DNA of 64,000 nt from positions 10,678 to 74,677 of the forward strand of contig JADGDD010000008.1 in the NCBI GenBank assembly GCA_016745075.1. The letters are read 5' to 3'. The position numbers and the translations under genes were made by a program. Under the pieces are notes generated by a model, which was not told the DNA's origin, did not search any database, and saw only the letters and a program-made list of their open reading frames with translations. This document shows positions 1,029 to 49,930 of the stretch, piece by piece; positions within the stretch are counted from its first letter, which is position 1, and the number at the start of each line of letters is the position of its first letter. This DNA is from Planctomycetota bacterium. GTDB taxonomy: Bacteria; Planctomycetota; UBA11346.

Positions 1029-3626
1029 ATGCACACACCAAAACACGTAGACATTGCACGCAAACTTCTGTTCAGTTTCCTTTTGATGTGGTTAATTTTT
1101 CTGTCTTTTGGGGTGTTATCAGTTTATTGGGTTGATAACGCCAGCACGCTCACACGTACGTTTTACAACCAACCCTTAGTCGTTTCCAATGCAGTTCTAC
1201 AAGCAAATATTTCCATCACCAAAATGCATCGTAATATGAAGGATGTTGTGCTCTTCTCAGGGATAGAACGTAGCCAAAATGCTATTGCAAACGTAAAACA
1301 ACACGAACAAGAGGTCTATGAGCAACTAACCATCATACAGTCAAAGATATGGGGGGCAGACGGGCAAAAGCGAGTAACCGAAACTCGTAGAGTATTTGAT
1401 CAATGGAGACCCATTCGTATGGAAGTGATTGATCTCGCCTCAAATGGTAAACGTCAAGAAGCGTCTGAAATAACAATAGAAAAAGGGGCAAAGCATGTTG
1501 CCGAGTTAGAAAAGAAAATACTTCAACTCACGCAATATGCACAAAACAGATCGCTGCTCTTTATTCAGGAAGCTGAAGACACTCAATTTCACACCACAAT
1601 TTTTACCGTAACATTTCTATGTTTGGGTACGCTTGGCTCCTTTCTCATTGCACATGTTACCATACAGCAAACAACACGCTCTGAAGAAAAACTCCTAGAG
1701 AGTGAAGAAAAATACCGTGTTTTAGTTGAAAATATGGATGATGGCGTCAGCACTATGGATAAACATGGTATTTTCCACTACGCAAATGAACGGTTTGCAG
1801 AAATTTTTGGCTATCAACTTAATGAAATTATCGGAACACACTGGACTGATATTTTTGACAACACATCACATAAAATGATACGTAACCAAATTGCTCAGCG
1901 TAAAGCTGGAGTGACCAGCGTTTATGAAATAGAACATACCACGTGCGATGGTAAAGAATTGTTTTTGCGAGTCTCTGCTGTACCGGTCTACAACCGTAAC
2001 GGCGAAATGAACGGTAGCACTGGAGTCGTTTCTGACATTACCAATCACAAACAGTTTGAGCAAACACTGATGCAAGCAAAAACGGAAGCTGATGTTGCTA
2101 ACCGTACAAAATCAGAATTCCTTGCCAATATGAGCCATGAAATCCGTACACCTATGAATGCAATAATCGGATTTAGCGACCTTCTACTTAATGAGAACAA
2201 AAAACGAGCACAATATGATAAACTCTCCGCAAAAGACATCACTCAAATACAAAAAATATCTATCTCGGCAAAAAACTTACTCTCTGTTATTAATGACATT
2301 CTTGATTTCTCTAAAGTTGAAGCTGGAAAGTTAGAAATTGAAAGCATCGACTTTGATCTTCGTATTATCCTCCATAACATGCAGACTCTTCTCCAAAAAA
2401 GCGCACAACAAAATAACGTCACCTTCTCTGTGACTATTGCCGAGAATGTTCCTTATTTTTTGAAAGGTGATCCTCATAGACTGTACCAAGTACTTCTCAA
2501 CCTCACTAATAATGCGATTCAATTTACACATAATGGTACTGTCTCCATATATATCACGCAAGAAAAGCATGCTTCTACAGGAGTGCAACTACGGTTCATG
2601 GTGGAAGATACTGGAATTGGCATTCCAGCCAAACTACAAAACAAAATATTTAATGCATTTAGTCAAGCTGACTCGTCTCATGCCCGCCGCTACGGAGGCA
2701 CAGGTTTAGGATTGGTCATTTCCAAACGGCTTGCACAATTGATGGGTGGGGAAATAACATTCTCCAGCACCGAAGGTAGAGGTAGCACATTTTACTTCAC
2801 GACCACTTTCGATGTTGGCACCATGCCAATACGTAATGACCATACGGCAGATTTCAAAGTCCACAATTTACGCATTCTCTTAGTTGAAGACAACCTGTTC
2901 AATCAAGAACTCATTACTGCCATTCTTAACAATCAGAAAATCACCATTGCCAACAACGGTAAAGAGGCGGCAAATATTTTGGAACAAGAATGTTTTGATA
3001 TGATCTTAATGGACATTCAGATGCCCATTATGGATGGATTTGAAACAACCACTCTTATCCGCGATCGTCATTCAAATATTCTTGATCACGATGTTTTTAT
3101 TACTGCAATGACTGCCCATGCTACAAAAGAAGACCGTCAAAAATGTTTTGACACAGGAATGAATAAATATTTACCCAAACCACTTGAGGCCGATGCCTTA
3201 CTCTTCATTATTAATCAACACTTTGGCAAGACCCACAGCGCCAGCACTTTCCGAAAACAGCAATCACACAGTACATTATTAAATATACCATTATTTCTAG
3301 ATAACATACGCAATAATAAACAATTAGCGGCTAAAATGATTGGTATTTTTCTTGATGGTTGCCGAGAAAAATGTACGACTATCAAGACAGCCATCCACAA
3401 CAATGATGCAAACATGCTGAGCTCTTCTGCCCACTCCTTCAAAGGCATGTTGTCTTATTTCTGTCAGCAAGGCACAAAACTGTCCTATCAGCTCGAACAA
3501 ATAGGAACATCAGGAGAAATTAAGCAAGAAGATGCTATTTTATTCTTTGACCAACTTGAAAGCATCGTACATCGTATAGAACCAGAGCTTAAAGACCTTA
3601 AGTCTACATGGGATACCTGCGCTTAA
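1029..3626 (+). CDS. Hybrid sensor histidine kinase/response regulator (TM sensor region, PAS, HisKA, HATPase_c, receiver, C-terminal HPt)
   Basis: Two hydrophobic segments flank a ~160-aa putative periplasmic region; PAS-like block; H-box ANMSHEIRTPMNAIIGFSDLL; ATPase G-boxes EDTGIGIP and GGTGLGLVISKRLAQLMGG; receiver ILLVEDN...LMDIQMPIMDGFE; HPt-like SAHSFKGMLSYF. Start ambiguous (in-frame candidates 861 TTG/ATG, 957, 1029); 1029 chosen because GAGG lies ~12 nt upstream and a TM helix follows. Confidence 0.85.
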   Translation: MHTPKHVDIARKLLFSFLLMWLIFLSFGVLSVYWVDNASTLTRTFYNQPLVVSNAVLQANISITKMHRNMKDVVLFSGIERSQNAIANVKQHEQEVYEQLTIIQSKIWGADGQKRVTETRRVFDQWRPIRMEVIDLASNGKRQEASEITIEKGAKHVAELEKKILQLTQYAQNRSLLFIQEAEDTQFHTTIFTVTFLCLGTLGSFLIAHVTIQQTTRSEEKLLESEEKYRVLVENMDDGVSTMDKHGIFHYANERFAEIFGYQLNEIIGTHWTDIFDNTSHKMIRNQIAQRKAGVTSVYEIEHTTCDGKELFLRVSAVPVYNRNGEMNGSTGVVSDITNHKQFEQTLMQAKTEADVANRTKSEFLANMSHEIRTPMNAIIGFSDLLLNENKKRAQYDKLSAKDITQIQKISISAKNLLSVINDILDFSKVEAGKLEIESIDFDLRIILHNMQTLLQKSAQQNNVTFSVTIAENVPYFLKGDPHRLYQVLLNLTNNAIQFTHNGTVSIYITQEKHASTGVQLRFMVEDTGIGIPAKLQNKIFNAFSQADSSHARRYGGTGLGLVISKRLAQLMGGEITFSSTEGRGSTFYFTTTFDVGTMPIRNDHTADFKVHNLRILLVEDNLFNQELITAILNNQKITIANNGKEAANILEQECFDMILMDIQMPIMDGFETTTLIRDRHSNILDHDVFITAMTAHATKEDRQKCFDTGMNKYLPKPLEADALLFIINQHFGKTHSASTFRKQQSHSTLLNIPLFLDNIRNNKQLAAKMIGIFLDGCREKCTTIKTAIHNNDANMLSSSAHSFKGMLSYFCQQGTKLSYQLEQIGTSGEIKQEDAILFFDQLESIVHRIEPELKDLKSTWDTCA

Positions 3627-24171: not shown

Positions 24172-24247
<76 letters not shown>

Positions 24248-24308
24248 ATATCTATTTTCAATTTAGCGTTTTAAGAACACTTGTAACCGCTTCTCAATAA
24301 CACTGTAG

Positions 24309-24384
24309 TGGTGGCCTCGGGCAGATTCGAACTGCCGACACAAGGATTTTCAGTCCTCCGCTCTACCAACTGAGCTACAAGGCC
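24309..24384 (-). tRNA. tRNA-Phe (anticodon GAA), CCA encoded
   Basis: 76-nt cloverleaf folded by hand: acceptor GGCCTTG/CGAGGCC, anticodon loop CT-GAA-AA, T-loop TTCGAAT, 3' ACCA. Confidence 0.95.
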
Positions 24385-45202: not shown

Positions 45203-46156
45203 ATGTACCGTGAGACAATCAAAATTATGGACTGCACCGTTCGTGACGGCGGGCTAATGAATGCATGGCAATTTGATGATGACTTTGTGAAAGGTATTTA
45301 TACCGCCTGTGTTGATGCTGGCATTGATTACATGGAGATTGGCTACAAAAGCAGCGAGCATGCGTACTCACGTGAAGAAAATGGTCCGTGGAAGTTCTGT
45401 GATGAAACCGATTTGCGCCGTATTGTTGGTGACAATAATACAGATCTTAAACTGTCAGCCATGGCTGACATTGGTCGAATTGACGAAGAAGATATTCCAC
45501 AAGCAAGCGACAGCGTCATCGATATGCTGCGCGTCGCTTGTTATACCCATCAGGTAGATAAGGGTATAGCCCTTGCTGAACACGTTTTAGACAAGGGCTA
45601 TGAAACCACGCTTAACATTATGGCTGTTTCTACCACCATGGAACGAGACCTTGATGAAGCGCTAAATGATATTGCTAAGAGCCGTGTGAAAGCAGTTTAT
45701 ATTGTTGATAGCTTTGGTTCAATGTACAGCGAACAAATCCAAAGCCTCTGCGAAAAATACCGCAGTATCTTAGGTGATGATGTCACCCTTGGTTTTCATG
45801 GCCATAACAACCAACAATTGGCCTATGCAAATACAGTTGAAGCCGTTATTCGTGGCGTTGATATGTTAGACGGTTCCTTGCTTGGCATGGGACGTGGAGC
45901 CGGAAACTGCCCTACAGAATTGTTACTCGGCTTTTTGAAAAACCCAAAATACAGTTTACGTCCTGCTCTTCAGGCCATTCAAGACCAGATGATTCCAATG
46001 CAACAAAAAGTAGATTGGGGCTACCACCTCCCCTACATGATTGTTGGCATGCTGAATCAACACCCACGCTCTGCCATGGCCTGCATGGATGGCGACGACC
46101 GTAACAACCTAACCGGATTCTTTGATAAAGTCACAGACGAAGCTATTATTGATTAA
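45203..46156 (+). CDS. HMGL-like (DRE-TIM metallolyase) aldolase family protein, 4-hydroxy-2-oxovalerate aldolase-like
   Basis: IKIMDCTVRDGG N-terminal block; GFHGHNNQQLAYANTVEAV...LGMGRGAGNCPTE metal-site blocks typical of the pyruvate carboxyltransferase/HMGL-like fold. Confidence 0.65.
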   Translation: MYRETIKIMDCTVRDGGLMNAWQFDDDFVKGIYTACVDAGIDYMEIGYKSSEHAYSREENGPWKFCDETDLRRIVGDNNTDLKLSAMADIGRIDEEDIPQASDSVIDMLRVACYTHQVDKGIALAEHVLDKGYETTLNIMAVSTTMERDLDEALNDIAKSRVKAVYIVDSFGSMYSEQIQSLCEKYRSILGDDVTLGFHGHNNQQLAYANTVEAVIRGVDMLDGSLLGMGRGAGNCPTELLLGFLKNPKYSLRPALQAIQDQMIPMQQKVDWGYHLPYMIVGMLNQHPRSAMACMDGDDRNNLTGFFDKVTDEAIID

Positions 46157-46159
46157 ACT

Positions 46160-46533
46160 CCATCTTCGGTGATTTGCTCCTCGGAAAGCGGACGTCCTCG
46201 TCCGCTAGCCACAGTGACATACTTTCGAACAGGGACATTACTGATCTCTTCCTATTCTACCATATATCCTAGGCGGACGGGGACGTCCGCCCTCCGGGCT
46301 ACTAAACCCACGCTCTGCTATCGCAACAACTTCACCAGATTTTTTGATGAAGTTACAGACGAAGCTATTATTGATTAAACTCCGCCCTCGGTGACAGGGA
46401 CATTAGCCCGGAAAGCGGACGTCCTCGTCCGCTAGCGATAGCCCCTGTGAAAATCTTTCAAGCAGGGACATTACTAATCTCTTCCTATTGTATCGTATAT
46501 CCTAGGCGGACGGGGACGTCCGCCCTCCGGGCT
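46160..46533. repeat. REP array 1: two ~190-bp units, each with an inverted REP pair (GCGGACGTCCTCGTCCGC and GCGGACGGGGACGTCCGC); unit 2 begins with a duplicated copy of the upstream gene's last ~44 nt
   Basis: REP-A at 46188-46205 and 46415-46432; REP-B at 46273-46290 and 46506-46523; 46339-46382 repeats 46118-46161 with few mismatches. Confidence 0.8.
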
Positions 46534-47562
46534 TTAACTCAATGCGGTCAAACAATGTTCAGCTCCGTTCGTCGCTCTATCTAAATAGGTCTTTATGTTT
46601 TCCAGTGGGACATCTCCACTAATGCTATGTGATGGCGATAAAATATAACCGCCGCCCGGCATCATTATATTAATCAACTCTTCTGTATCTTTGCGCACAT
46701 CATCTATACTACCAAAGGGCATAGTTTTTTGCACGCTGAGTCCACCCCAAAACGCAAGCTTATTACGGTATTTTTCTCTAAGCTTCCAAATATCCATTGC
46801 TTCTGGTTGGAATGGGTCAAATACATCTACACCGCATTCAACAATATCGTCCATTAAATCTTCTACATTACCACAACAATGAAGACTAACAAGTAGCCCA
46901 GCCTCTTTGGCAACCGCACAACTTTGCGCAAAGCGTGGTTTAATAAATTCTCGCCACATTGGTGGAGAAATAAGCGTACCAAGCTGACTGCCCCAATCAT
47001 CACCAAAGTGCACACAGTCTACACCAAGGGCGGCGGCGTTTTTTATAACGGCATCGTTATACTCGGTAATTTTATCTAATAATTCGTGAATGAATTCTGG
47101 CTCTGCAATGAGATCCATCATAAATTCTTCCATACCATATAAAGCCCAAGCTCGTTCAAAGAGAGAAAAACCAATGCTAACCATATGAAAATGATCTGGA
47201 TACTTTTCTTTATCACGTCGAATGAAATCATAGACGGGAAGATCGTTAGGATTCGGAAATTCATAATCGCCAAATTCTGCATCTTCTAATACTGGCTGAT
47301 CAACGATACCCAGTGTCTTGTCTTGCGTTTTATTCCAGACCACCCCAAAGTAATCTTTAAAATACCCCGGCTTCACTTCTTCCCAGCCGTTATTCGTATG
47401 AGAAGCAACCACACCACTTCCGGTTTCAAGCACAGGATCAAAAGGACGACCAAGAAATCTCTCAATATTCTCTTTCGCTTCTACAGTAAATTTAATAGAA
47501 TGCGGCAATTGTTCTGGTTCTTGATGTGTAATGGCTTGGATAAAGTCGCTACGGTAAGTCAT
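46534..47562 (-). CDS. Uroporphyrinogen decarboxylase (URO-D)-like family protein
   Basis: Typical URO-D family C-terminal region ...LHCCGNVEDLMDDIVECGVDVFDPFQPEAMDIW...; start moved to ATG 47562 preceded by AGGAG (listed ORF extends to 47838 through a hydrophobic, non-homologous leader). Confidence 0.7.
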   Translation of the reverse strand: MTYRSDFIQAITHQEPEQLPHSIKFTVEAKENIERFLGRPFDPVLETGSGVVASHTNNGWEEVKPGYFKDYFGVVWNKTQDKTLGIVDQPVLEDAEFGDYEFPNPNDLPVYDFIRRDKEKYPDHFHMVSIGFSLFERAWALYGMEEFMMDLIAEPEFIHELLDKITEYNDAVIKNAAALGVDCVHFGDDWGSQLGTLISPPMWREFIKPRFAQSCAVAKEAGLLVSLHCCGNVEDLMDDIVECGVDVFDPFQPEAMDIWKLREKYRNKLAFWGGLSVQKTMPFGSIDDVRKDTEELINIMMPGGGYILSPSHSISGDVPLENIKTYLDRATNGAEHCLTALS

Positions 47563-47722: not shown

Positions 47723-48148
47723 ATGGAAACAGATGACCTCATCATTTCTAACCGCGTCACCATCCCCCAACGGGAAATAACCATGACGGCAATCCGAGCG
47801 CAGGGTGCCGGTGGCCAACATGTGAACACGTCCTCCACAGCTATCCACCTACAATTTGATATACATGCATCATCATTACCCGCATATTACAAAGAACGAT
47901 TACTCGCCGTAAAAGACAAACGTATTTCAAGCGCAGGTATTATTACCATCAAAGCACAAGAATATCGTAGCCAAGAACAAAATCGTCAACATGCCCTCAA
48001 TAGACTTGCTGACATGATTCGTGCCGTTACCGTTGTTCAGCGTAAACGCATTGCCACACGCCCAAGCAAGGGTTCCAAAACACGACGACTCGACAGCAAA
48101 AACAAGCGTGGTCAATTAAAAGCAAGACGACGCGAACGTTTCGACTAG
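47723..48148 (+). CDS. arfB: Peptidyl-tRNA hydrolase ArfB (alternative ribosome-rescue factor B)
   Basis: GGQ motif in [16 protein letters not shown] and the basic C-terminal tail [14 protein letters not shown]. Confidence 0.85.
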
Positions 48149-48589
48149 TACCATATGTTTGTTCTCAGCCACTATTATATTCATGTCTTGATACGTCGTA
48201 TTATTGATAACCGTTCTACTGCCAAGCAACAATTCAGTTTTCACTGACGAAGGTGGGCGCAAAGTTTTACCGTAGGTTCTCACCTTTAGCACCAGTTCAA
48301 TCATTAACAGTGCTAAAAAAATGAACAAGACAGAACTGCACCGCCTACGCTCAAGCACTCGTAGCTGGGAACACAACAGATCTCCATGCACAGTTTGATA
48401 AGACAATGAAAGGTGCCATTAGTCTTGAACAAATAGAGACACTCTGGATAGAACTTCAAGAAAAAAGCAGACATAGCATTTAATTTGGGAAAGGGGAAGT
48501 TAAAACCATTAACGGGCACCGCACCACAGTGCTCCCTTTGCTGGACGGAAAAACAATCCCTTACAATTTACAGATAACCATCAATAAAA

Positions 48590-48917
48590 CAGCCGCAAGA
48601 CTGGGCATTTTCATTTTACCCGCAAGATGAATAGCTCGGAGAGCGGACGTCCTCGTCCGCTTTGGAGATACGGAAGAGTATCGATGAGGTAGGAGTAATT
48701 CTTGCGCGGATAAAAGGAACAAAGGGCTAACGCTAGCGGACGGGGACGTCCGCTTTCCGGGCTGAGGTAAAAGGAATGCCAGCGGCATGGAGAGAAGCTC
48801 GGAGGGCTAACGCTTTGGAGATACGGAAGAGTATCAATAAGGCGGGAGAAATTCTTGCGCGGATAAAAGGAACAAAGGGCTAACGCTAGCGGACGGGGAC
48901 GTCCGCTTTCCGAGCTG
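48590..48917. repeat. REP array 2 upstream of the RAYT gene; starts with a copy of the RAYT 3' end
   Basis: 48590-48640 matches the last ~50 nt of the RAYT CDS (49489-49539); REP-A at 48643-48660; REP-B at 48736-48753 and 48889-48906; the second unit has lost REP-A. Confidence 0.8.
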
Positions 48918-48960: not shown

Positions 48961-49539
48961 ATGGCGGTTCATAAAGAATGGTATGATCGTGGACATCTTC
49001 CACATTATGATACGGGAAACTGTTATCAATCTTTGACGTATCGTTTGGGAGATAGCCTCCCGCAAGCTGTTCTACAACACATGAAAAATAACGTGCTTTA
49101 TGAACCAGAACAATACCGACAAAAATTGCTACGTAAACAAATTGAACACTACCTTGATGCGGGGTATGGCTCCTGCCTTCTTGGAGAACCAGCGGCAGCA
49201 CAGGCCGTTATTGATACGTGGAAATACAATGATGGACATGCCTATCGCTTAATTGCTGGCTGTGTTATGCCAAATCATGTGCATGTTCTTATTCAAGAAC
49301 TCAGAGGACATCCGCTTGGTTCGATTATACAAACGTGGAAAAGCTACAGTGCCAGAATTATCAACAAAATATTTGCACGTTCTGGCCAACTGTGGATGCA
49401 AAGTTATTGGGATAGATATATACGCGATGATAAACATTTCTGGCGTACCGTTCATTATATCAGAGATAATCCCGTTCAAGCAGGGCTGGTAAAACAGCCG
49501 CAAGACTGGGCTTTTTCATTGTACCCGCAGGATGAATAG
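48961..49539 (+). CDS. REP-associated tyrosine transposase (RAYT; IS200/IS605-like Y1 HUH transposase)
   Basis: HUH motif PNHVHVLIQ and C-terminal catalytic block SYWDRYIRDDKHFWRTVHYIRDNPVQAGLV; flanked on both sides by REP arrays. Confidence 0.85.
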   Translation: MAVHKEWYDRGHLPHYDTGNCYQSLTYRLGDSLPQAVLQHMKNNVLYEPEQYRQKLLRKQIEHYLDAGYGSCLLGEPAAAQAVIDTWKYNDGHAYRLIAGCVMPNHVHVLIQELRGHPLGSIIQTWKSYSARIINKIFARSGQLWMQSYWDRYIRDDKHFWRTVHYIRDNPVQAGLVKQPQDWAFSLYPQDE

Positions 49540-49835
49540 CTCGGAGAGCGGACCTCCTCGTCCGCTTTGGAGATACGGAAGAATATCGATGAGGCGGGAG
49601 AAATTCTTCCGCGGATGAAAGGAACAAAGGGCTAACGCCTGCGGACGGGGACGTCCGCTTTCCGGGCTGAGGTAAAAGAAATGCCAGCGGCACGGAGGGA
49701 AGCTCGGAGGGCGGACGTCCTCGTCCGCTTTGGAGATACGGAAGAATATCGATGAGGCGGGAGAACCTCTTGCGCGGATGAAAGGAACAAAGGGCTAACG
49801 CCTGCGGACGGGGACGTCCGCTTTCCGGGCTGAGG
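49540..49835. repeat. REP array 3 downstream of the RAYT gene: two ~145-bp units each with REP-A and REP-B
   Basis: REP-A 49548-49565 (variant GCGGACCTCCTCGTCCGC) and 49711-49728; REP-B 49641-49658 and 49804-49821. Confidence 0.8.
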
Positions 49836-49887
49836 TCTTCGTGAGCCCAGAAAGATAACGCTAGCGTTATCTTTCTGGGCTCAACAA

Positions 49888-49930
49888 ACACAGCCTGTGA
49901 CTTTTGTCACAGGCTGTGTTTTATTTTATG
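49888..49930 (+). terminator. Intrinsic terminator (14-bp stem, U-tract), likely bidirectional between the REP-RAYT unit and PFOR
   Basis: acacagcctgtgac-tttt-gtcacaggctgtgt followed by TTTATTTTAT; preceded by a perfect 40-bp palindrome at 49843-49882. Confidence 0.6.

Follow-up and report, generated by a model that had tools for sequence, protein, structure and literature searches.

How the end of a protein-coding gene comes to be multiplied together with a repetitive extragenic palindromic (REP) element is the question raised by a short region on scaffold_15 of the short-read metagenome assembly of SAMN14087006. In the stretch of 64 kb analysed here, in the following called the window, the 3' tail of an aldolase-like gene is present twice, each time followed by an inverted pair of REPs, and a gene for a REP-associated tyrosine transposase (RAYT) lies 2.4 kb from this tandem pair. 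Here we present a description of the repeated units, of the REP family and of the RAYT gene, together with the reasons for which we consider the locus as a two-unit ordered cluster of REP doublets forming hairpins (REPINs) that probably arose from a local tandem duplication of a REPIN and the gene tail.

The duplicated gene tail and its REP doublets

The aldolase-like gene (45203-46156, +) is intact and encodes a protein of 317 aa with an HMGL-like/DRE-TIM domain (Pfam PF00682, E 3e-22). The region behind it was analysed by direct reading, direct-repeat search, MAFFT and blastn. In blastn, positions 46100-46300 align with 46322-46533 at 82.5% identity over 212 nt (E 1.9e-45), so that the recurrence of the gene tail, which a first-pass annotation had read from the letters, stands above chance on formal alignment. 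The direct-repeat search of the region pairs 46100-46172 with 46322-46394 at 86% identity and 46193-46300 with 46426-46533 at 85%. The 29-mer ACAGACGAAGCTATTATTGATTAAACTCC, which spans the end of the coding sequence (CDS), the stop codon TAA and 5 nt past it, has exactly two copies in the window, with none expected.

The offset of the repeat is 222, position 46118 pairing with 46340; the partner had been placed at 46339 and was thus right to within 1 nt. The length of the copied tail needed a larger correction, from about 44 nt to 95 nt of CDS represented by 73 nt. Positions 46062-46080 match 46306-46324 at 17 of 19 nt, a score reached in none of 2000 shuffles, and 22 nt of CDS are missing between the two matching parts of the copy, which reduces the 95 nt of the gene (46062-46156) to 73 nt (46306-46378) and leaves the tail copy frameshifted.

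Both units run in the order gene tail, short linker, REPIN, and both end with the REP-A/REP-B pair, as had been noted at first sight. The first unit begins with the native 3' end of the CDS (f1, 46062-46156, +), including the TAA at 46154-46156, and continues with REPIN 1 (46178-46300, +), which is made up of REP-A (46178-46205, with the hairpin at 46188-46205 and a degenerate head), a spacer (46206-46272) and the inverted REP-B (46273-46300). Five bases, ACTAA (46301-46305), form the junction to the second unit. This consists of the decayed tail copy, tail' (46306-46378, +), in which 17 of 19 and 50 of 57 nt match the gene and the TAA is kept at 46376-46378, and of REPIN 2 (46405-46533, +), with REP-A at 46405-46432, the spacer at 46433-46505 and REP-B at 46506-46533. 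The outer edge of REPIN 2 abuts the stop codon (46534-46536) of a convergent gene for a URO-D/MtaA-like methyltransferase of 342 aa (46534-47562, -; Pfam PF01208, NCBIfam MtaA/CmuA-like below cut-off).

Between the two units the terminal stretch of CDS agrees at 88% (the 50 of 57 nt mentioned above), and the linker from the stop codon to the REP is diverged and contains insertions and deletions. REP-A agrees at 25 of 28 nt, all three differences lying in the degenerate head of the first copy; the spacers show 56 matches, 11 mismatches and a 6-nt insertion or deletion (84%). REP-B is identical at 28 of 28 nt and forms, together with 10 nt of spacer, a 38-mer common to both units (46263-46300 and 46496-46533). 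A stretch of 28 nt at REP-A is identical as well.

The direction of copying can be read from the protein family. Homologues of the aldolase-like protein number in the thousands; with lengths of 313-333 aa (in most cases 315-317 aa), they cover 98-100% of the 317-aa query and keep the positions HPRSAM..WM and F(Y/F)D of the C-terminal region. Because they cover the full length and share these positions, the tail is native to the family and the downstream copy is derived, which upholds the earlier proposal that the tail was duplicated together with the REP unit. The terminal residues VTDEAIID occur in none of 44 inspected homologue C-termini, and the copy of the tail therefore comes from this gene lineage. 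A REP as donor of the C-terminus and stop codon of the gene is ruled out by the homologues of 313-333 aa with common C-terminal positions. A function of tail' as silent cassette or alternative C-terminus was dropped, since it is frameshifted and located downstream of a stop codon. The gene itself has no relative above 73% identity, and its named homologues are scattered over Fibrobacterota, Planctomycetota and Bacteroidota.

An open reading frame (ORF) of 69 aa (46169-46378, +), regarded by the first-pass annotation as an artefact of the duplication, crosses REPIN 1 and terminates within the copied tail, at the stop codon of the latter. Its C-terminal 18 aa are the copied tail (tblastn of RNNLTGFFDKVTDEAIID against RNNFTRFFDEVTDEAIID, E 6e-5). 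It matches no Pfam family, has no visible Shine-Dalgarno sequence and is, judged from these features, most likely spurious.

Two minor features of the units were observed in addition. The 12-mer ACAGGGACATTA is found within both REPIN spacers (46229-46240 and 46462-46473) and a third time at 46394-46405, just 5' of the second REP-A, where unit 1 has unrelated bases; the extra copy points to either a small insertion copied from a template or a more complicated past of unit 2. A sigma-70-like match (TTGATA/TTGATG, 16 nt, TATTAT) is located in the gene tail at 46122-46149 and again in its copy at 46344-46371. A promoter and terminator scan of the region delivered counts no higher than in shuffled sequences, this match included.

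The REP family and the RAYT gene

The core of the REP is the hairpin GCGGACG-NNNN-CGTCCGC with a GC stem of 7 bp and a loop of 4 nt. It occurs 11 times in the window (0.04 expected), with four copies at the aldolase locus, three at 48643-48906 and four at 49548-49821, all within 3.7 kb. About 16 kb of extra scaffold flanking the window contain no further copy, i.e. none is present in the other 76 kb or so of the approximately 80 kb read. All 11 copies are intergenic, one REP head being overlapped for 2 nt by the stop codon of the RAYT gene. The entire REP measures 28 nt and carries a conserved 10-nt 5' head, AGCYCGGARR, on one side of the hairpin. A scan of JGI metagenomes with a 28-nt REP pattern yielded no matches. 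As far as about 80 kb can tell, the family looks low-copy and local.

The REPs are paired in inverted orientation with their heads outward, 67-75 nt apart. At the aldolase locus the inverted arms are 24-29 nt long and 88-90% complementary, with 67-73 nt between them. For all five doublets a single-strand hairpin with a stem of about 29 bp is predicted, in which REP-A is paired with REP-B (z -4.5 to -9.0); as single-stranded DNA, REPIN 1 folds at -25.7 kcal/mol (z -4.5) and REPIN 2 at -41.2 kcal/mol (z -9.0). Because the pairs are inverted and predicted to fold REP-A onto REP-B, the doublets are REPINs in the sense of Bertels and Rainey. The early naming of these palindromes as REPs is borne out by the excess of intergenic 7-bp/4-nt hairpins, by the folding of the inverted doublets and by the same REP flanking the RAYT gene.

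The REPINs of the aldolase and RAYT loci have their REP arms in common and unrelated spacers (67-73 nt and 75 nt, respectively), and the head variants are swapped between the loci, with GGAAAGC/GCCCTCC at the former and GGAGRGC/GCTTTCC at the latter. At least two REPIN subtypes therefore exist for one REP core. Direct repeats of at least 30 nt in the window are confined to these REP clusters and two tRNA genes. No Rfam family matched these REPINs, and the search gave only sub-threshold chance matches to nearby palindromes. Two other classes of element were rejected. Inverted ends as in a miniature inverted-repeat transposable element of a DDE transposon are present, but no direct duplication was seen outside the five doublets by direct reading, and the enzyme is of the Y1 HUH type, not DDE. 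An integron attC site was dropped from the sequence, there being no RYYYAAC/GTTRRRY cores at the ends and again a Y1 HUH protein as the enzyme.

The RAYT (TnpA-REP) gene (48961-49539, +) encodes 192 aa and reaches 89.2 bits with NF047646, the NCBIfam equivalog 'REP-associated tyrosine transposase' with a cut-off of 80 bits; it also matches PF01797 (Y1_Tnp) and PDB entry 4ER8 (E 2.5e-7). The HUH motif is contained in PNHVHVL and the catalytic tyrosine in HYIRDNP. In the alignment with 4ER8, the E. coli TnpArep and best solved relative, HVH corresponds to HMH and the tyrosine of HYIRDNPV to that of DYIYINPV. The gene is bracketed by the same REP at 48643-48906 and 49548-49821, and its stop codon TAG overlaps the head of the next REP. 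On this evidence it is predicted to encode the cognate transposase of these REPs.

The bracketing sequences are colinear direct blocks (48585-48917 and 49490-49832) with 89.5% identity over 343 nt (E 2e-120), and both begin with the last 49 nt, i.e. the last 16 codons, of the gene. In the downstream block (+) the gene end is followed by a REPIN (49538-49668), a linker of 32 nt and a second REPIN (49701-49831). The upstream block (+) consists of the 49-nt copy of the 3' end (IKQPQDWAFSFYPQDE, ending in the stop), a REPIN, the linker and a partial REPIN without REP-A hairpin. Searches by tblastn and Smith-Waterman alignment for more RAYT remnant upstream of 48585, or for more aldolase remnant upstream of tail', found none. 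The public ENA scaffold has a gap of 100 N at window position 48704/48705 (L001, 13503-13602), inside a REPIN spacer, which the window sequence does not show; how many units the upstream array has and what they contain is therefore uncertain. Despite the gap, the left joint between the RAYT tail copy and non-RAYT sequence is real contig sequence.

Some details of this array stand on their own. In the partial REPIN (48796-48917) the REP-A head AGCTCGGAGGGC is present and runs straight into CTAACGCTTTGGAG, as if about 9-19 nt of the hairpin, depending on the alignment, had been deleted. Just past the last REPIN a perfect palindrome of 40 nt, GAGCCCAGAAAGATAACGCTAGCGTTATCTTTCTGGGCTC, is located at 49843-49882, with no second copy in the window. 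It is similar to the REP head in its outer 11 nt (AGCCCGGAAAG), and its centre has TAACGCTAGCG in common with the end of the REPIN spacer. It recalls the 'a-palindrome-a(c)' relics which Bertels and Rainey ascribe to REPIN excision. A second hairpin, with a run of T, at about 49890-49930 looks like a terminator shared with the convergent PFOR gene.

Origin of the two-unit cluster

At both loci the right end of each repeated block lies 0-5 nt from the outer edge of a REP. The left breakpoint at the aldolase locus (about 46050-46062) lies in unique coding sequence without a REP. Of the REP-mediated duplication put forward in the first-pass annotation, the part that stands is thus the right breakpoint at the REPIN outer edge, from which a role of the REP would follow; recombination of one REP with another is not what happened, as the left breakpoint is in unique CDS. 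We consider it most likely that the cluster goes back to a tandem duplication which was local, selectively neutral and favoured by the REP hairpins. In the ancestral order the aldolase-like gene would have been followed, after about 21 nt, by one REPIN and then by the convergent URO-D-like gene, stop codon first. A tandem duplication would then have affected about 240 bp, beginning with roughly the last 95 nt of the aldolase CDS and stopping at the outer REPIN edge or a few bases further on. Because the left breakpoint lies inside the gene and the right one beyond it, the upstream copy of the gene would stay complete and the event be neutral. Later the downstream tail would have decayed by the frameshifting deletion of 22 nt and by 12% substitutions, and the spacers would have diverged by about 16%, the REP arms having stayed identical or nearly so. 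Illegitimate template switching during replication, or unequal exchange between sister strands, at the stable REP/REPIN hairpin would most likely have been the mechanism. The RAYT accounts for the presence of the REPs and is not needed for the duplication, although its catalysis of the event is possible. The REPINs probably act, if at all, as hairpins at the 3' ends of two convergent genes.

Similar arrays were found among 119 loci, taken from the matches listed in a scan of a genome collection with a generic 18-nt REP core. Nine of these 119 listed loci contain local direct repeats of at least 60 nt, and two of the nine share the present architecture. In a metagenome-assembled genome (MAG) of the Opitutaceae (L052, JAEUHA010000683.1, 3948-4730), the 3' tail of an M16 peptidase gene (assigned by Pfam) and a REP doublet form four tandem units with a period of about 207 nt, each with roughly the last 45-85 nt of the gene including the stop codon. 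In a MAG of the Pyrinomonadaceae (L109, JBHELZ010000003.1, 2540-3115), a 70-codon C-terminal ORF fragment stands between REP doublets, and a unit of 162 nt, composed of the ORF tail (last 55 nt or so, with TAA), REP and spacer, is present twice (2784-2945 and 2948-3108) at 93.8% identity. The two units of L109 meet within the REP hairpin, a position that speaks for slippage stimulated by the hairpin rather than for precise cleavage by an enzyme. With identities of 93-97%, the units of the Opitutaceae and Pyrinomonadaceae arrays are younger and their junctions better preserved. Because such arrays are present in both families, copying of gene tails may be a recurrent by-product of REP cluster formation, as these sequences suggest. 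Ordinary slippage evidently acts on these arrays, since the tail copies carry internal deletions, of 22 nt at the aldolase locus and of 39 nt between 10-nt direct repeats in one unit of L052.

The same core of 18 nt, GCGGACGGGGACGTCCGC, in many cases with GCGCTCCCAG or CCCTCCG after it, was observed in many MAGs (loci L006-L124, among the matches listed) assigned to Acidobacteriota, Verrucomicrobiota, Planctomycetota, Myxococcota, Cloacimonadota and others, several genomes having multiple matches. This suggests a REP core common to distant phyla.

Several points weigh against a simple tandem duplication. The RAYT-upstream block is separated from its source, so one such duplication is insufficient there and a second event or another process is needed. 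The two units are only 82-86% identical, while the clusters of Pseudomonas fluorescens SBW25 are described as nearly identical, and the junction between the two units here (46301-46305) is too diverged for any call of microhomology, which leaves the slippage step to inference. The REP census covers approximately 80 kb of one scaffold, and this scaffold stems from a short-read metagenome with a gap in the RAYT-upstream array. Databases contain no close relatives in which a state before or after the event could be seen, the best identities being 73% for the aldolase-like protein, 56% for RAYT and 79% for GuaA; exact-protein look-ups returned matches from the same sample only.

The non-adjacent block would be explained more simply by a transposition-like step, as in copying of an extended unit catalysed by RAYT. 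The enzyme would cut single-stranded DNA at an off-target site within the gene that precedes the REPIN as well as at the outer REPIN edge, and would rejoin the excised or copied strand beside a REP, which would yield tail-plus-REPIN units beside the aldolase-like gene and upstream of the RAYT gene. Both tail duplications indeed lie within 3.7 kb of the only RAYT, with no other REPs in about 80 kb. The outer edge of the REP ends with GGGCT, the left breakpoint in the RAYT gene follows GGGCTGGT (49484-49489), and on direct reading a GCT is located about 12 nt upstream of the aldolase breakpoint; cutting by TnpA-REP enzymes at short CT/CA sites near REPs in vitro (PMC8266576) counts in the same direction. 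Yet the motif match of 3-6 nt is statistically weak, and the 32-nt linker between the RAYT REPINs, tried as a decayed RAYT tail and rejected, has only the 7-mer GGTAAAA in common with that tail (p about 0.19, not significant). The L109 junction inside the hairpin does not lie at a fixed edge. Among four loci with distant RAYT homologues, two (L130 and L133) have two-sided REPIN arrays, L128 has single inverted REPs on each side and L131 no clear REPs, and none of the four carries a gene tail in its arrays; the two-sided arrays without a tail argue against RAYT copying in particular. Moreover, chemistry of the IS200/IS605 type does not predict capture of a 5' flank, and no mechanism of REPIN transposition in vivo has been established (PMC3337134). 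We regard copying by RAYT as rather unlikely.

A related proposal takes the tails as footprints that record the multiplication of REPINs. At both loci described here, and in the Opitutaceae and Pyrinomonadaceae arrays, a REPIN would have been copied with the 45-95 nt that precede its REP-A arm, and the copy would have been placed next to a REP, at its outer edge. Plain replication slippage is the alternative to this proposal, which we consider doubtful. If it were true, and if RAYT-dependent cleavage and rejoining of single-stranded DNA at a short GCT-like site were responsible, decayed tails would amount to naturally recorded maps of the breakpoints in the reaction that forms REPIN clusters.

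A history in two steps, in which a whole gene was duplicated in tandem with its REPIN or REPINs and most of one redundant copy was later deleted except for the 3' tail, would cover the aldolase and RAYT loci, including the RAYT-upstream block, by one scenario. An old remnant of a paralogue could well show the divergence of 12-16%. Of the seven substitutions in the terminal CDS, three lie on first and four on third codon positions and none on second ones (0/7), a weak hint of former coding evolution of the copy, but this bias is not significant (p about 0.06). Such a history requires two events per locus, with each deletion stopping exactly at a REP edge, and the searches mentioned above revealed no more RAYT or aldolase coding remnant upstream of the tail copies. 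The four short tail units in a row in L052 are hard to obtain by repeated duplication and deletion of gene size. This history, too, appears improbable.

The assembly itself was checked against independent k=31 Logan contigs of run SRR11072027, which stop at 46292 and 46504. A k=31 graph would break exactly at these positions if the 38-mer had two left and two right contexts. As the identical block of 38 nt collapses such a graph there, the contig ends fit a tandem arrangement of the units; further REPINs in the rest of the genome could add contexts to the 38-mer, and the copy number of unit 2 is at least 1. An assembly artefact, with unit 2 being a mis-join or a strain-variant path threaded through common REP sequence, may be suspected from the short-read metagenomic source, the break of the k=31 contigs at both REP-B copies and the 100-N gap in the neighbouring RAYT array, but is very unlikely, since tail' with its 22-nt deletion is fused to REP-B by a unique junction that a strain variant with an intact gene could not supply, the longest identical stretch between the units (38 nt) is shorter than typical final assembly k-mers, the Logan contigs end exactly where a true two-context 38-mer predicts, and the same architecture occurs in independent assemblies from other phyla.

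Relation to known REP systems and neighbouring genes

Ordered REPIN clusters beside a RAYT gene have already been described. In P. fluorescens SBW25, Bertels and Rainey reported in 2011 (PMC3116915) 16 tandem REPIN clusters whose unit consists of a 5' flank f1, the REPIN and a shorter flank f2, with a short unrepeated stretch between units and a REPIN cluster beside each RAYT (PMC3116915). A mechanism of their formation had not been proposed (Bertels and Rainey 2011, PMC3337134). The layout of the present locus, with unit 1 at 46062-46300 (+5) and unit 2 at 46306-46533, matches the definition of an ordered REPIN cluster: a 5' flank, a REPIN and a short 3' flank are arranged head-to-tail with few unrepeated bases in between, beside the cognate RAYT. 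The distinctive feature here is that f1 is coding sequence, reaching 95 nt into a protein-coding gene, unlike the flanks in SBW25. The lower identity of the units marks an older, decayed example. The REP family appears low-copy and local on the scaffold read, again unlike SBW25, and the host is not a pseudomonad; for GuaA of this uncultured bacterium, the nearest named relatives come from Planctomycetota MAGs, with about 72% identity.

REPtrons, i.e. TnpA-REP/RAYT genes flanked by REPs, were reportedly described by Nunvar in 2010 and Ton-Hoang in 2012. Corneloup in 2021 treated REPtrons and a small-REP group with a short perfect palindrome (PMC8266576). As in REPtrons, a Y1 HUH transposase-like gene is here bracketed by cognate REPs with a short palindrome, which resembles that of the small-REP group (PMC8266576). 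Unlike in REPtrons, the flanking blocks are direct repeats into which the final 16 codons of RAYT are incorporated, and the hairpin is preceded by the head AGCYCGGARR and not by a GTAG tetranucleotide.

Large tandem duplications in Salmonella by recombination between two distant REPs were reportedly described in 1990 by Shyamala, Schneider and Ames (EMBO J 9:939). The present duplication is likewise in tandem and has a REP at the join point, but it joins the REP to unique coding sequence, and its unit has a length of only about 230 bp. Classical recombinational duplication from REP to REP is ruled out here by the left breakpoint in unique CDS without a REP.

Arrays of bacterial interspersed mosaic elements (BIMEs) in E. 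coli are tandem REP-linker-REP units whose linkers are family-specific motifs. The alternation of inverted REPs in regular tandem arrays, their intergenic location and their position at the 3' ends of genes are the same here; the flank copies the adjacent gene, whereas BIME linkers are not gene copies.

For annotation it follows that the 69-aa ORF should not be called, that repeat DNA occupies the space between the aldolase-like and URO-D-like genes and that the 192-aa neighbour is a RAYT, not an ordinary IS200 transposase. The locus provides a clean example, from a poorly sampled lineage, of a REPIN cluster with a recognisable coding flank. Because the duplicated flank is coding sequence, the polarity is unambiguous, with the gene as source and the downstream unit as copy, and the breakpoints can be placed approximately. 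Such tails could discriminate hairpin-induced slippage from RAYT-mediated events.

Among the neighbouring genes, a 141-aa protein with an RF-1 domain and GGQ motif (ArfB-like peptidyl-tRNA hydrolase) is encoded between the two REP regions at 47723-48148 (+). Two adjacent tRNA genes (24175-24384, -) provide the only Rfam matches at gathering level in the window. Two IS110-family transposase genes of 348 aa each (DEDD_Tnp_IS110 and Transposase_20), about 1 kb apart, are located on scaffold_15 at 1.5-4.5 kb to the left of the window start (L126, 1581-2627 and 3571-4617).

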